DNA from: a virus
Strand: one strand, 5' to 3'
DNA: 23,184 bases
Virus genome (UHGV): UHGV-0173641
Below the pieces are notes generated by a model that saw only the letters and a list, made by a program, of their open reading frames with translations, did not search any database and was not told where the DNA came from. Positions 3,162 to 10,590 of the stretch are shown here, piece after piece; position 1 is the stretch's first letter, and each line of letters opens with the position of its first letter. The position numbers and the translations under genes are program-made.

Positions 3162-3572
3162 ATGCACGCAAAAGAAGAAGGTATCATCAGAGCACTGAGA
3201 GAAATTTCAAAGATGGAAAGCGAAGTAACGAAAAAAGCCGTAGCAAATAATCATATAGACGTCGCGACCCACACAATGATAGTCGCAAAAGTCACGGCAG
3301 AAGCCGCCAAAATCATCGAAGAACAGGGTGCGGAACTTACGCTTTTCAAAACTCAACCAGTCACCGGACTGGATTTATCTAACACCGGACGCCTTATTTA
3401 CACAATTGGCTCGGAGCCACAGCAATACACCATTATCGCCGGATTACAGGATAAATACTTGATCACTCCTCACCCCATAAGGGAATCAGAAATTCTGACA
3501 AATCTCCGCCTGATAGAGCGCTCTCAAGTCGCATTCATTGATGGCGCGCAACGTGCCGTATTTAACGCATAG
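3162..3572 (+). CDS. Hypothetical protein (136 aa) in an AT-rich islet; possible moron/accessory gene
   Basis: Clean ORF with GGAG about 9 nt upstream of the ATG, preceded by ~100 bp of visibly AT-rich non-coding DNA (3069-3161). No family recognised. Confidence 0.6.
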   Translation: MHAKEEGIIRALREISKMESEVTKKAVANNHIDVATHTMIVAKVTAEAAKIIEEQGAELTLFKTQPVTGLDLSNTGRLIYTIGSEPQQYTIIAGLQDKYLITPHPIRESEILTNLRLIERSQVAFIDGAQRAVFNA

Positions 3573-5355: not shown

Positions 5356-8178
5356 ATGACGGCAGAGTACATCAGGGACTGGCAACAACCGCGCCACGCA
5401 GTGGGGCGTGAAGGAACGGGGATCCCCGCTCCTGAATCCGCGCTTTCCTCCTGGCTGGATGCTTACCGGGCAGAGAACGAGCGCCGCCAGGAAATGGCTG
5501 ATGCGGCGTTCTCCGCCACGCCGCTGGGCAACCTGATTAATAAAAGCCTGGACGCACAGGAAAAACAGGACAAAACCATCACACTGGCAGGAGACGCCAG
5601 AAAACAGGCACGCGGCGCGGTGGATGAAGCCATGGCCTCGCTGCGCCTGCTGCCGTCCTATCTGCGCGATCCGCTTATTCGCCACCTCTCCTTCCTGCGC
5701 AAAAAACAGGAAGCCGATCGCCAGAAAGGCAAAAAGAGCTGGCAGGCTGAACGCTACGCGCGCGGAACCCTGCGCAAAATATTCGAACGTCTGGACCGCA
5801 CCGACCACCGCTGGCTGACACGGGGTTATCGCGCCCTTGCCGGACGCGAACGCCTGGACGATTTGCTTTACCTGCCGCAGCTCAACAAGCACCAGATACA
5901 GACGCTGGCCACCATGACGGCGGCGATGTTCAGCAGCACCTTCGAAAAACTCTGCAATGGCTTTGGCGCGACCGATGGCGAGCTGACCATGGATGTAACC
6001 CTGAAGGCGTATCAGATGCTGGCCCGCATGGCGTTACACCTGCACGCCATGCCTCCACATTATGACGCACTGACAACAGACAAAGACCGGAGGAACGAAC
6101 CGGACACGGAACTGCTGCCGGGCGCAATCCTTCGCCTGACCTGTGCGGAATGGTGGAAACGCAAACTGTGGCTGTTACGTTGCGAGTGGAGAGAAGAACA
6201 ACTCCGCGCCGCCTGTCTGGTTTCCAGAAAGACATCGCCCTATCTGAGCCAGGACGCGTTAAGCGAGTTTCGCGCACAGCGCGAGAAAACACGCGATTTC
6301 CTGAAAAGTTTCATGCTGGAAAACGAAGATGGGTTCACGATTGATCTCGAGACAGTGTATTACGCGGGAGTAAGTAACCCGGTTCACCGTAAGGCAGAAA
6401 TGATGGCCACCATGAAGGGGCTGGAACTTCTGGCCGAAGCCCGTGGCGACAAAGCGGTGTTTCTGACTGTCACCTGCCCGTCAAAATACCACGCCACAAC
6501 AGAGAACGGTCATCCGAATCCCAAATGGAACGGGGCCACCATGCGCGACTCCAGCGATTACCTGGTTAACACGTTTTTTGCGGCGGTCCGCAAGAAACTG
6601 AACCGCGACGGCCTGCGCTGGTATGGCATCCGCACGGTGGAGCCTCACCATGACGGCACCGTGCACTGGCATATGATGGTCTTTGCTCATCCGGAAGAAA
6701 TCGACAGCATCGTGGCCATCACCCGCGATATTGCCATTCAGGAAGACCGCCACGAGCTGGGCAATGATATTACTCCGCGCTTTAAGGCGGAGTATGTCGA
6801 CGGCTCAAAAGGCACACCAACCAGCTACATCGCGACCTACATCGGGAAAAACCTGGACAGCCGTGCCGTGGATGGCATCGACCCGAAAACGGGCAAGCCA
6901 CGCGTTGACCACGAAACCGGAAAATCAATGGCCGAGAGCGTGGAACGCGCCATCGGCTGGGCGCGCCTTCACCGGGTCCGCCAGTTCCAGTTCTTTGGCA
7001 TCCCCTCCCGCCAGGTATGGCGTGAACTGCGCCGCCTTGCCAGCCAGATGGCACGCAACCCGGAAGGCCCGCAACGGCTGAAGGATGACGCAATGGATGC
7101 GGTTCTTGCCGCCGCTGATGCCGGATGTTTTGCCACCTACATAGAGAAACAGGGCGGCGTACTTGTTCCACGCAAAGACTACCTGATTCGCACCGCCTAC
7201 GACCTCGCCGATGAGCTGAACGATTACGGCGAACAGAGCGTACAGATTTACGGGATCTGGTCACCACTCATCGGGGAATCCTCCCGTGTGTGCACGCATC
7301 CGGATAACTGGAAGCTGGTAAGACGCAAACCGGAAGCGAAAGACAGCGCCAGCGAAAATGGTTTTGACCTTCAGGGCGGCCCTGCCGCCCCTTGGACTCG
7401 TGGCAATAACTGTCCCCGTGTACAGGAAACGGACAACAACGGGACAGAACAGCCGGAAGAACGGCCAGCACCGTGGCCGCAGCTTCCTGACGGCGTTGAT
7501 GTGGATGAATGGATGCGCTCACTGAAACGGCACGAACGCCGGGCGCTGATGCGTTCGCTGCGTGACAAACAGGCAAAAAACAGCAGTGATGAAATGCAGA
7601 GCTGGACACAGAGCCGCAAACAGCAGCGGCCTTTGCCTGATAACCACGAATTACTCGCTAAAGAATGGCGGGAGTCTGCCGAATCTCTCGGCCTGCATAT
7701 CGGTGAACAGCAGATGCAGCACCTGTTACGGGGCGGCAGCCTGTACGTTGACGGCAGCATCATTGCACCGCAGGGATTTGAAATTGTACGCAAACCGGAT
7801 ACCCGCCCGGACAGCCGAATCACGCAGCTCTGGCAGCGCCTGAGCCGTAATCACGGCGTAAGCAGCACGGAGATCCGCCATAACCCGGTCGCCGGCTATC
7901 TGGAACAGCTGGGGGCATCAGACCCCGAAGCCGCCGCACGCCTGGCATCCACACTTCAGCAGGACCAGAACACCATGAAAACCCCCGTTACCGTGCTTTC
8001 TGACATGCTGCGCGCCATCCGTGACGCAGAGCACGCACAGAGAATCAGTGAAACCACTGAACGCGCCCGCCGCAAAGCAGACCTGCTGCGGGGTAGCCTG
8101 ACCAGTGGAAACAAAAAACAGACAGAAACGGGATTCACAAAACCCGTAAATGAGCAAAAAACGCGCCGCGATATATGA
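5356..8178 (+). CDS. A: Replication initiation endonuclease, P2 gpA-like rolling-circle initiator (940 aa)
   Basis: Large ORF in the P2 A position. Contains an H-x-H (HWH) and paired tyrosines (YIATYIGKN) consistent with the HUH rolling-circle motifs of this family. About 180 aa longer than P2 A as I recall it (761 aa), with a charged/low-complexity C-terminal third. Confidence 0.85.
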   Translation: MTAEYIRDWQQPRHAVGREGTGIPAPESALSSWLDAYRAENERRQEMADAAFSATPLGNLINKSLDAQEKQDKTITLAGDARKQARGAVDEAMASLRLLPSYLRDPLIRHLSFLRKKQEADRQKGKKSWQAERYARGTLRKIFERLDRTDHRWLTRGYRALAGRERLDDLLYLPQLNKHQIQTLATMTAAMFSSTFEKLCNGFGATDGELTMDVTLKAYQMLARMALHLHAMPPHYDALTTDKDRRNEPDTELLPGAILRLTCAEWWKRKLWLLRCEWREEQLRAACLVSRKTSPYLSQDALSEFRAQREKTRDFLKSFMLENEDGFTIDLETVYYAGVSNPVHRKAEMMATMKGLELLAEARGDKAVFLTVTCPSKYHATTENGHPNPKWNGATMRDSSDYLVNTFFAAVRKKLNRDGLRWYGIRTVEPHHDGTVHWHMMVFAHPEEIDSIVAITRDIAIQEDRHELGNDITPRFKAEYVDGSKGTPTSYIATYIGKNLDSRAVDGIDPKTGKPRVDHETGKSMAESVERAIGWARLHRVRQFQFFGIPSRQVWRELRRLASQMARNPEGPQRLKDDAMDAVLAAADAGCFATYIEKQGGVLVPRKDYLIRTAYDLADELNDYGEQSVQIYGIWSPLIGESSRVCTHPDNWKLVRRKPEAKDSASENGFDLQGGPAAPWTRGNNCPRVQETDNNGTEQPEERPAPWPQLPDGVDVDEWMRSLKRHERRALMRSLRDKQAKNSSDEMQSWTQSRKQQRPLPDNHELLAKEWRESAESLGLHIGEQQMQHLLRGGSLYVDGSIIAPQGFEIVRKPDTRPDSRITQLWQRLSRNHGVSSTEIRHNPVAGYLEQLGASDPEAAARLASTLQQDQNTMKTPVTVLSDMLRAIRDAEHAQRISETTERARRKADLLRGSLTSGNKKQTETGFTKPVNEQKTRRDI

Positions 8179-8226
8179 AGCGCGCATAAAACAGGCAAAA
8201 ACGGGATTTAAAAACCCCGTAAACGA
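8113..8226. repeat. Two ~41-bp direct repeats (8113-8153 and 8186-8226), each with an internal ACGGG...CCCGT dyad; candidate parC-like centromere/operator
   Basis: aaaaaacagacagaaacgggattcacaaaacccgtaaatga versus ataaaacaggcaaaaacgggatttaaaaaccccgtaaacga, about 34 of 41 identical by hand alignment, 73 bp start-to-start. Copy 1 lies in the last codons of A, copy 2 in the gap upstream of the ParM-like gene. Confidence 0.6.
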
Positions 8227-8254
8227 TTAATTAATCAACATAAGGAAAATCGAC

Positions 8255-9214
8255 ATGAAAATCTGTATCGACGACGGCTCCACCAACATCAAGCTGGCAT
8301 GGACTGAGAACGGCGAACGCCGCAACGCCATCAGCCCGAACAGCTTCAAATCGGAATGGTCTGCGCCGTTCGGTGGCATGCAGCCCGCAAACTACATGCT
8401 TGATGGCGTGCGCTATGGTTTTGATCCGGTCAGCGATCGATTTGTCCAGACGACCGACACGCAATACCAGTACAGCGATGTGAATGTAATTGCCATTCAT
8501 CACGCGCTGGTCAAATCAGGCATCACGCCACAGGAGGTGGATGTGGTTGTCACCCTGCCACTGAGCGAGTATTTCGACACAAACGCACAACCGGACATGG
8601 CCAACATCAACCGCAAAAAAGCGAACGTTATGCGCCCGGTGGAATACCAGAACGGCGAAGCATTCACTATCCGTAATGTACGGGTTATGCCTGAATCCAT
8701 TCCGGCTGGCTTTAAAGCACTGGCTGACATGAGTCCGTTTGAATCCCTGCTGATTGTGGATTTAGGCGGAACCACGCTGGATGTGGCAAAGGTTCAGGGA
8801 CAACTGGCAGGTATCAGCCAGGTGTTTTGCGATCCACACGTAGGCGTTTCCCTGATGGCCGATGCCGTACTGTCGGTGATGGCCACCAACGGTATGCGTA
8901 CCAGTCACCACATCGCCAATACCATTATCGAACATCGCCATGATGAAGCCTGGCTGCGCCAGCACATCCACAATGACGCGCATTACGGCAGCCTGATGGC
9001 GGTTATTCGTGAAAAGGAAGAAACACTGAAACAACGAGTGATCCGCGCGCTGGCGGGTTTTTCGGGTTACGGGCGGGTGATGGTTGTCGGTGGCGGGGCG
9101 GAGATTGTGGCACCCGCTATCCGCGAAGCCTGCGGAGTTAATGCGGCTTTCATCGCAGACGGGGTGCCACAGTTTGCTCTGGTCAATGGTTTGTACGCAA
9201 TGGACAAGGAGTAA
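8255..9214 (+). CDS. parM: ParM/StbA-like actin-type ATPase (type II plasmid partition family)
   Basis: 319 aa. N-terminus MKICIDDGSTNIKLAW and LIVDLGGTTLDVAK, plus SDVNVIAIHHAL, VMPESIPAG, MVVGGGAE and LVNGLY, match plasmid R1 ParM as I recall it (MLVFIDDGSTNIKLQW..., LIIDLGGTTLDIS, VMVIGGGAE). Strong AAGGA RBS. Confidence 0.88.
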   Translation: MKICIDDGSTNIKLAWTENGERRNAISPNSFKSEWSAPFGGMQPANYMLDGVRYGFDPVSDRFVQTTDTQYQYSDVNVIAIHHALVKSGITPQEVDVVVTLPLSEYFDTNAQPDMANINRKKANVMRPVEYQNGEAFTIRNVRVMPESIPAGFKALADMSPFESLLIVDLGGTTLDVAKVQGQLAGISQVFCDPHVGVSLMADAVLSVMATNGMRTSHHIANTIIEHRHDEAWLRQHIHNDAHYGSLMAVIREKEETLKQRVIRALAGFSGYGRVMVVGGGAEIVAPAIREACGVNAAFIADGVPQFALVNGLYAMDKE

Positions 9215-9218
9215 ACCC

Positions 9219-9530
9219 ATGACGACATCAACCTGGCGGATAAGTTTCTATCTGAAGCCCTCCGCTGTCAAGAACGAAGGCGAAGCATGCGCCTGGCTGG
9301 ACAGCCTTACACCAGAAGCCCGCAAAAGCGGCCAACGCGTGGCTTTTCTGGCCGGGCTGGCACTTCTGAAAATGAATCCGGCAGAGGCTTACCGACTGGC
9401 TGCATGGGCTGATGATGAAGTGTTATCAGTGACACAGACCAGGACAGAACGCCCCGCATCACAGCCAGTATCAACCGCACAGATAACCAGTCAGATGGCC
9501 GGAAATATCCGGGCGTTATTTCCTGAATAA
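9219..9530 (+). CDS. parR: ParR/StbB-like adaptor protein (small DNA-binding partner of ParM)
   Basis: 103 aa from ATG 9219, 4 bp after the parM stop, with AAGGAG upstream. ISFYLKPS...LDSLTPEARKSGQRVAFLAGLAL...NIRALFPE resembles R1 ParR as I recall it (IAFKLNPD...LDSIPQGERSRLNRAALTAGLAL...NILRSLFP). The longer ORF-track start at 9084 is rejected. Confidence 0.65.
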   Translation: MTTSTWRISFYLKPSAVKNEGEACAWLDSLTPEARKSGQRVAFLAGLALLKMNPAEAYRLAAWADDEVLSVTQTRTERPASQPVSTAQITSQMAGNIRALFPE

Positions 9531-9536
9531 CACAAC

Positions 9537-9558
9537 ATCAGGGCGAGTTCGCCCTGAT
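9537..9558. promoter_or_regulatory. Perfect 10-bp inverted repeat (atcagggcga-gt-tcgccctgat): candidate operator or terminator stem
   Basis: Palindrome between the parR-like stop (9530) and the GTG start at 9583. No T-run follows, so a protein-binding site or RNA stem is as likely as a terminator. Confidence 0.45.
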
Positions 9559-9582
9559 AACACTATCCAAAGGAGGCAAGCA

Positions 9583-10590
9583 GTGAGCATCATTCAGCGC
9601 TGCCGAGCAGAAAACACTTTTAATTTGGTTTCCATGTCTGGCGGGAAAGACTCACTGGCGCAATGTTTGTATGCCATAGAAAACGATATACAGCATGAGC
9701 GAGTGTTTGCTGATACGGGGCACGAACACCCACAAACGATGGAGTACCTTGACTATCTGGAACAAAAGCTGGGACCAATTCGCCGCGTAAAAGCCGACTT
9801 CACTCGCCAGATAGAAGGTAAGCGCAAATTCATTGCTGAAAAATGGCCAGTATCTCTTGTTGCAGAGTGCGGAATGACGCCTGATGAAGCAGCGGAACGT
9901 GTTGCTTGTGCGCTGGAAATCCTCCACCCAACCGGAAATCCATTTCTTGATCTGTGCATGTGGAAAGGTCGTTTCCCGAGCACTAAAGCGCGGTTCTGTA
10001 CATTCGAACTGAAACACGAACCAGTGCGCACTCAGGTGGTGCAACCTGCGCTTGATGAATATGACGAAGTTATCTCCTGGCAGGGTGTGCGTGCTCAGGA
10101 ATCGCCATCGAGGGCACGCCTGCAAGTGTGGGAGGAAGATGCGGACAATACCCCCGGATTGCATGTCTATCGTCCGATTTTCAACTGGCTACATGAGGAT
10201 GTTTTCGCTATTGCCAGGCGTCACGGGATTAAACCCAACCCGCTCTACCAACAAGGATGCAGCCGCGTTGGGTGTATGCCATGCATTCATGCCAGAAAAT
10301 CTGAACTGGCGGAAATTTTTCAGCGTTGGCCAGAGGAAATCGCCAGAGTGGCAGAGTGGGAACGATTAGTTGCAGCCTGCTCTCGCCGCGGCAACTCAAC
10401 GTTTTTCCCGTCAACTCATGACCCGCGCCGGGCAGAACGTCGCATAGATGTTGTTACCGTAGACAGCTACGGAATCGAAACCTATCGCGACTGGGCAATG
10501 ACAACCCGGGGCGGCGCTCAATTTGACCTGCTGGCGAGCACGAACGATAAGGCGGTGTGCAACAGTGTTTATGCGGGAGTATGCGAATGA
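9583..10590 (+). CDS. PAPS reductase-like / PP-loop ATP pyrophosphatase family protein (335 aa) with C-terminal Cys cluster
   Basis: N-terminal PP-loop SMSGGKDS (SGGxDS) typical of the PAPS reductase / DndC-like superfamily. Cysteine cluster CSRVGCMPC (Cx4Cx2C). GTG start with strong AAAGGAGG RBS. Last gene before the cos region. Confidence 0.8.
   Translation: MSIIQRCRAENTFNLVSMSGGKDSLAQCLYAIENDIQHERVFADTGHEHPQTMEYLDYLEQKLGPIRRVKADFTRQIEGKRKFIAEKWPVSLVAECGMTPDEAAERVACALEILHPTGNPFLDLCMWKGRFPSTKARFCTFELKHEPVRTQVVQPALDEYDEVISWQGVRAQESPSRARLQVWEEDADNTPGLHVYRPIFNWLHEDVFAIARRHGIKPNPLYQQGCSRVGCMPCIHARKSELAEIFQRWPEEIARVAEWERLVAACSRRGNSTFFPSTHDPRRAERRIDVVTVDSYGIETYRDWAMTTRGGAQFDLLASTNDKAVCNSVYAGVCE

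Follow-up and report, generated by a model that had tools for sequence, protein, structure and literature searches.

A palindrome pair upstream of parM as the probable parC of a partition cassette in P88-like prophages

ParMRC is the textbook 'mitotic spindle' of plasmids, and to our knowledge its centromeres have been characterized on a handful of plasmids only, all of them described as direct-repeat arrays. Here, we analyzed a viral DNA stretch of 23,184 nt (UHGV virus genome UHGV-0173641; its whole length is hereafter referred to as the window), which is a P88-like prophage (Xuanwuvirus, Peduoviridae, P2-like) with 96-97% identity to phage P88 and to 13 further phage records. Two long repeats with internal dyads, lying at the end of its replication gene A and immediately upstream of a parM-parR gene pair, had been put forward in an earlier note on this DNA as a parC-like site. 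Our comparisons revealed that this dyad pair belongs to parMR, to which it is linked exclusively, and they make it probable that the repeats, to which ParR would bind, serve as parC in a type II partition cassette (parC-parM-parR) borne by the phage.

Results

A pair of palindromic repeats precedes parM

In the window, gene A is followed by parM, parR, variable cargo and, on the opposite strand, the portal gene; P88 has the same A-parM-parR block and then different cargo. The features of this region are the following (window coordinates):

5356-8178, plus strand: gene A, replication endonuclease of 940 aa (stop codon at 8176-8178; Pfam Phage_GPA, E 9e-131)
8112-8153: repeat copy 1, 42 nt (A-rich 17-mer, dyad 1 and TAAATGA), within the last 22 codons of A
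8128-8147: dyad 1, ACGGGATT-CACA-AAACCCGT, the proposed left ParR-binding block
8154-8184: core between the repeats, 31 bp, more polymorphic than any other part of the region and without conservation in Hafnia or Plesiomonas
8162-8166 and 8180-8184: GC-rich dyad in the core (CGCGC and GCGCG), enclosing the stop codon of A
8185-8226: repeat copy 2, 42 nt, intergenic, ending 28 nt before the parM ATG (8255)
8201-8220: dyad 2, ACGGGATT-TAAA-AACCCCGT, proposed as the right block for ParR binding, perhaps also an operator
8226-8231, plus strand: ATTAAT, between dyad 2 and the ribosome-binding site, invariant in four clades
8255-9214, plus strand: parM, actin-like partition ATPase
9219-9530, plus strand: parR (StbB family), a ribbon-helix-helix centromere-binding adaptor of 103 aa, by family

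A repeat search of the window recovered the two direct repeats that the earlier note had placed at 8113-8226 with a length of 41 bp, now as 42-nt copies that are 83% identical and start 73 nt apart. The ACGGG-N10-CCCGT dyad described in each copy was also found, and it extends into a longer 8+4+8 palindrome of 20 bp, imperfect in the window; the overlap of copy 1 with the end of A was likewise as described. The dyad centres are 73 bp apart, with 53 bp between the dyads. When up to three mismatches were allowed, the 25-nt motif AAACGGGATTYAMAAAMCCCGTAAA matched exactly two sites in the window (0.00 expected from shuffles), and the complete 35.8-kb P88 genome has the dyad motif at these two sites and nowhere else. 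The A-rich 17-mer is present in three copies, at 8114, 8147, and 8187 (spacings of 33 and 40 nt), and the 42-nt pair and this trio are the only repeat families at the site, with no tandem 11-bp iteron array. AA dinucleotides recur with a period of ~10.5 bp (Fourier p ~0.003-0.01 against mononucleotide shuffles), which is weak evidence of A-tract phasing because such shuffles break A-runs. The central GC dyad of the core (8162-8184) has an alternative haplotype, GCCATAAAACATGAAGTGCGCG, and is absent in Hafnia L082 and in Plesiomonas.

The downstream genes are a ParM/ParR pair, as the earlier note had read them. ParM matches Pfam StbA_N (E 2.7e-82) and ParM_N (E 8.6e-68), as well as residues 2-316 of R1 ParM (PDB 1MWK, E 1.3e-92), whereas parR, which starts 4 nt past the parM stop codon, matches Pfam Plasmid_stab_B (E 1.1e-22). 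As a single sequence, the window ParR found no match in PDB; a profile built from ten ParR homologues matched pB171 ParR (PDB 2JD3, E 6.9e-18).

The repeats travel with parMR and not with gene A

We then compared the repeats between relatives with and without the partition genes. The E. coli prophages L187 and L188, which lack parMR, carry an A gene 97% identical to that of the window up to ~8066-8090; past this point the homology stops and the remainder of their A genes is unrelated. Where the window has parMR, they have a KAP NTPase gene, or genes for an AAA ATPase and an S8 peptidase. Neither contains the dyads; the earlier note had held that the same repeats in relatives of this kind would speak against a partition site. 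On the other hand, the repeats stay with parMR behind different upstream genes. A locus from IMG/VR (L062) combines a shorter A gene and an unrelated upstream open reading frame (ORF) of 155 aa with both repeats and parMR, its homology to the window starting at the left edge of copy 1 (~8113), and the ORF upstream encodes a 167-aa protein in Hafnia L082 and is 71 aa long in Enterobacter L190. A scan of IMG/VR for CGGGATTNNNNAATCCCGTAA returned 79 loci, with parM starting 50-126 nt downstream in 76 of them, three truncated and none without parM. The par cassette travels as parC-parM-parR, with no third gene conserved alongside. Together, the lack of dyads in the parMR-less relatives and their retention behind other ORFs indicate that the repeats are the left end of a mobile parC-parM-parR cassette.

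The par module supplies the final ~22 codons of A (8113-8178). Among 93 related haplotypes, this tail (8113-8175) has 4 synonymous and 14 non-synonymous variants, approximately the neutral expectation, as compared with 34 and 35, respectively, in the preceding part of A, and with 37 and 7 in parM, which is under purifying selection. Since the tail evolves neutrally, what is conserved in it reflects constraint at the level of the DNA. At least three unrelated upstream ORFs run into the site, and this, together with a tail that differs when other cargo follows, renders the coding overlap incidental. The proposal of the earlier note that the overlap constrains both the coding sequence and the site was thus not upheld. 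As a related observation, the C-terminal tail of A is set by the adjoining cargo module, giving a protein of 940 aa here and of 926 or 927 aa in the parMR-less relatives (tails compared: window 8113-8178, L187 3590-3619, L188 3566-3621, and L062 2860-2924); in L062, the separate 155-aa ORF finishes in the same parC-encoded tail.

Sequence and spacing of the dyads are conserved across four clades

In the 93 haplotypes, the consensus of both dyads is ACGGGATT-N4-AATCCCGT, with perfect 8-bp arms, the right arms of the window (AAACCCGT and AACCCCGT) being minority variants of AATCCCGT. The CGGGA and AA.CC cores show no variation or almost none, and the N4 spacers are the most polymorphic dyad positions (up to 34 of the 93 haplotypes). 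The GGG-N10-CCC pair, which maps at ~-125/-52 with respect to the parM ATG in the window, was found at -128/-55 in Hafnia L082 and at -131/-59 in Plesiomonas L085, with ParM proteins 62% and 63% identical, respectively; in Hafnia L316 (ParM 94% and ParR 71% identical), the two dyads lie 73 bp apart. Indeed, the spacing of the pair is always 72-73 bp across four clades, and shuffles set the chance of such a pair at 5e-6 per 240-nt upstream region. The invariant columns of the four-clade alignment are essentially GGGA...CCC twice, ATTAAT (window 8226-8231), and the ribosome-binding site. The A-rich flanks shift or vanish, and only the GGG-N10-CCC dyads keep both sequence and position.

A different parMR site, made of one long inverted repeat, was found in Serratia- and Enterobacter-type P2-like phages (ParM 54-58% identical). 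Arms of ~19 nt, GGGAAC.ATATAGAAAAAT and ATTTTTCTGTTTCGTTCCC, lie 26-28 nt apart around a small GC hairpin, and the left flank CAGGCAAAAACGGGA is in common with E. coli copy 2. The long-inverted-repeat sites are:

L086: 3870-3945
L091
L108
L109
L190: 2870-2960

Searches of IMG/VR seeded with the Hafnia and Plesiomonas ParM retrieved none and one relative, respectively, and a scan of genome contigs for relatives yielded 18 loci, chiefly of plasmid type. The P0018 and P0174 contigs end inside parM, and their upstream DNA is thus absent from the comparison; in P0023 (L193), the DNA upstream is AT-rich and of another type.

One consensus parC is shared by two ParR types

E. coli ParR comprises two allele families (L002-L273), type I, which is window-like (181 loci), and type II (54 loci), ~45% identical position by position. 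Both have in common the N-terminal arm and beta-strand MTTPTRRISFYLKP, the consensus parC, and the major ParM, all identical. The sharing of the N-terminal part and the divergence beyond it apparently place a recombination boundary inside parR. The uniform parC fits recognition by the invariant beta-strand. The window ParR has a singleton W6, all others having R6.

Downstream of parR lies a further feature:

9536-9559: stem-loop with a 10-bp GC-rich stem, CATCAGGGCGAGTTCGCCCTGATA, 6 nt after the parR stop codon, terminator-like on the minus strand (scan)

This stem-loop is probably the right end or the terminator of the par operon.

Transcription of parMR

An autoregulated promoter had been expected upstream of parM in the earlier note. 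A scan of 7900-9700 found no sigma-70 consensus promoter, leaving of that expectation the hint of a -10 in ATTAAT (8226-8231). On sequence and position, this hexamer could be a weak -10-like element, and positions 8227-8234 are invariant in the 93 haplotypes. Promoter candidates picked by hand, ATTAAT at 8226-8231 and TATATG in the core, were discarded because neither has a credible -35 element. If ATTAAT were a weak -10, dyad 2 would occupy ~-38 to -18, and a protein bound at this place would obstruct RNA polymerase. Otherwise, parMR would be read through from the early operon, and the lack of a plus-strand terminator between A and parM makes such read-through possible.

Discussion

A putative two-block centromere

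As the dyads always accompany parMR, they are most likely its centromere. In P88-like prophages, the cassette has the replication gene A on one side and the variable cargo slot on the other, and each repeat would supply one 20-bp palindrome as a ParR block, probably occupied by two head-to-head dimers, one per GGGAYT half-site. The variability of the dyad centre argues against base contacts there, and a spacing of 73 bp, about seven helical turns, would place both blocks on the same face of the helix. Phased A-tracts may add curvature, as in R1. A compact ParR-DNA complex built in this way could capture ParM filaments at their ends, and the filaments would then separate sister phage genomes in circular form, whether excised or replicating. 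ParR as the binder, its stoichiometry, filament capture, and repression via dyad 2 are what we infer from these comparisons. The proposed system would be an analogue of srpMRC (SXT/R391) and AlpAC (CGP3), both on integrated elements (PMC4489591, PMC5539076).

Comparison with known centromeres

Type II centromeres always lie upstream of parM and have a highly variable repeat architecture (PMC2241845, PMC9426499). The R1 parC spans 159 bp, with 2 x 5 direct iterons of 11 bp around a 39-bp promoter core, is strongly curved, and binds approximately one ParR dimer per iteron (PMC2241845). The phage site resembles it in its location directly upstream of parM-parR, in the homologous ParM (1MWK) and StbB-family ParR, in the two separate blocks that flank a short core within ~115-160 bp, and in its A-tract-rich DNA. 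However, a single 20-bp palindrome stands in each block in place of a five-iteron array, the 31 bp between the repeats contain no recognizable promoter, unlike the 39-bp core of R1, and the phage element is integrated as a prophage whereas R1 is a plasmid.

The nearest plasmid ParM proteins are ~50% identical, and their genes are preceded by T-rich 11-bp direct iterons in two clusters:

L094: iteron clusters at 3367-3462
L095: iteron clusters at 3359-3461
L097: iteron clusters at 3376-3478

These plasmid relatives share with the phage site the 73-bp offset between blocks, a similar distance from the parM ATG, and the gene order. On the other hand, their blocks consist of TTTTTCTCT, ATTGTTCTCA or TTTTTCTAT iterons, 2-3 or more per block, whereas those of the phage are GC-cored palindromes; at least L094 further differs in -35/-10-like hexamers visible by eye between the blocks, which the promoter scan did not list. 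Centromeres with few repeats have been reported in pB171 (two of 10 bp), pCW3 (four of 17 bp), and pSK41 (20-bp repeats) (PMC9426499). The phage site is like these in its low repeat number and its ribbon-helix-helix ParR (2JD3, ten-homologue profile), but they are described as direct repeats and none as a palindrome pair about seven helical turns apart. Among elements that are normally integrated, 13-bp repeats in both direct and inverted orientation lie ahead of srpM in the SXT srpC, which SrpR binds and which stabilizes an unstable replicon (PMC4489591), and AlpA of prophage CGP3 binds repeats (alpS) within the promoter region of alpAC and supports the replication and transport of phage DNA (PMC5539076). 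Both srpMRC and AlpAC/alpS are thus actin-like partition systems on elements of this kind, yet SrpR and AlpA are not StbB-family ParR proteins, and their repeats differ in sequence and number. In our best reading, the two-block geometry of the plasmid relatives is retained in the phage site, with one palindrome in place of each iteron cluster. The architecture, called unusual in the earlier note, is so in having palindromes instead of iterons; it is unusual only in relative terms, given the diversity of parC (PMC9426499, PMC4489591) and a 73-bp geometry shared with plasmids. What would be new is the palindrome pair as a parC layout, the type II partition centromere being already known.

Alternative explanations

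Several points weigh against a ParR-bound palindromic parC. All characterized ParR proteins have been reported to bind direct repeats (PMC9426499), and we found no publication on a parC of P88-like phages. The layout of the Serratia- and Enterobacter-type sites means that the dyad pair is not universal. No ParR-parC covariation was demonstrable, both ParR types sharing one consensus parC, and W6 of the window ParR does not track the dyad variants of the window, which L041 combines with the usual R6. A sigma-70 consensus promoter was not found in the scanned region, and 1533 of the 1535 E. coli places of the locus are chromosomal, which raises the question of when a centromere would be needed. 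Furthermore, 8-bp arms with half-site centres ~13 bp apart and a variable 4-bp centre suit a helix-turn-helix dimer equally well, and the A-rich 11-mers CAGACAGAAAC, GAGCAAAAAAC, and CAGGCAAAAAC, when reverse-complemented, resemble the plasmid iterons and could themselves be the true ParR contacts. The palindromes might accordingly be operators through which another dimeric regulator, e.g., a phage or host helix-turn-helix protein, controls parMR, with ParR on the A-rich 11-mers or elsewhere in the 150 bp. The three A-rich 17-mers, which resemble the reverse complement of the plasmid TTTTTCTC iterons, and the ATTTTTCTAT-like arms of the Serratia-type loci would also suit such an arrangement. 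We nonetheless consider it unlikely: across the four clades it is the dyads that are conserved in sequence and position while the A-rich flanks move or vanish, and no third gene is conserved with the cassette. The dyad is absent elsewhere in the P88 genome and in the window, so a separate regulator would have a regulon of one site pair; an operator of a phage-wide regulon was rejected on the same count of two motifs in P88.

Considerably less probable is that the dyads act as RNA, i.e., as minus-strand hairpins or intrinsic terminators that would keep antisense transcription out of the early operon. Dyad 2 on the minus strand, ACGGGGTTTTTAAATCCCGT followed by TTTTGCCTGT, is the only instance of the dyads to pass the terminator scan; T-runs also follow dyad 1 and the central GC dyad on that strand, and the minus-strand fold of the whole region reaches -36.4 kcal/mol (z = -4.3). 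However, this strong fold is what two copies of one palindrome pairing together would give, and the single hairpins are weak (-6.3 to -9.8 kcal/mol, z -1.7 to -2.8). Hafnia L082 and Plesiomonas L085 do not conserve the T- or A-runs beside the dyads, neither strand accounts consistently for the population variants (G-U pairs being plus-strand-only in some and minus-strand-only in others), and Rfam 15 gave no relevant match in 7900-8500 at E <= 1. Besides, the flanking genes are both encoded on the plus strand, and there is already a far stronger stem-loop behind parR (9536-9559). The terminator or RNA reading was therefore rejected on its weak folds, the lack of an Rfam match, and T-runs that other clades do not conserve. 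The lowest probability falls to origin (ori)-associated sites of A or a functionless duplication at a recombination junction. Copy 1 does lie inside the A ORF, with its left edge at a recombination junction, but relatives with the same A and no parMR have no dyads, on which grounds an ori or other A-linked site was discarded, and the stretch of A conserved among distant P2-like phages (7378-7421) is ~700 nt upstream of the repeats. A relic, in turn, would not keep the GGGA/CCC cores and the 72-73 bp spacing where ParM is only 62-63% identical.

What a palindromic parC would mean

If the repeats are the parC, a complete parC-parM-parR cassette is carried by a very common E. coli prophage, present in about a quarter of complete genomes. 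A speculative and rather doubtful extension is that a minimal type II centromere made of palindromes allows a P2-like phage, normally integrated, to undergo active partition in the form of a free circle, with a shared specificity and a role in incompatibility or exclusion. The free-circle stages suggested are those after excision, early replication, and a carrier state. P88-like prophages keep one centromere and one DNA-reading head of ParR, the rest of ParR being shuffled, and would thus share one partition specificity; if so, the locus could determine incompatibility or exclusion, either between P88-like phages that co-infect a cell or against plasmids with the same site. Binding by ParR would widen the recognition modes of ribbon-helix-helix ParR proteins to head-to-head arrangement on inverted half-sites, two 20-bp sites would make a very small defined centromere for structural or synthetic work, and the need of an integrating phage for partition would become testable by point mutations that spare the overlapping A function. 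If ParR does not bind, the dyads would be an ordinary operator pair. In both cases, what is predicted here is a component of an already known system, not a system of a new kind.

The host element and its cargo

A search with window 7500-8700 found the locus in 1373 of 5426 complete E. coli genomes, with at most three copies per genome; carriers include O157 Sakai (Sp13) and UTI89. The idea of a phage-plasmid was rejected, as the 'plasmid' copy NZ_CP110658 (ParM at least 95% identical) is an integrated prophage beside pheA, tyrA, and aroF. In this record (L314), the Salmonella 'plasmid' pS2122_1 bears the prophage adjoining these chromosomal-type genes, which suggests a chromosome-plasmid hybrid or a misassembly.

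The variable slot after parR holds one gene in the window:

9583-10590: solitary PAPS-reductase-domain gene (best PADLOC matches SspD, E 6e-25, BrxP, and DndC)

In other relatives, this slot contains a KAP NTPase, HicAB, a DUF3800 protein, or an AAA ATPase with an S8 peptidase, contents that fit a defence hotspot. Within gene A, the 44-nt island at 7378-7421 is ~91% identical in otherwise diverged P2-like phages, among them Fels-2, SopEPhi, SEN8, and many Klebsiella phages. One record labels the gene that overlaps it 'nicking at origin of replication', and the island may be the ori or nick region.

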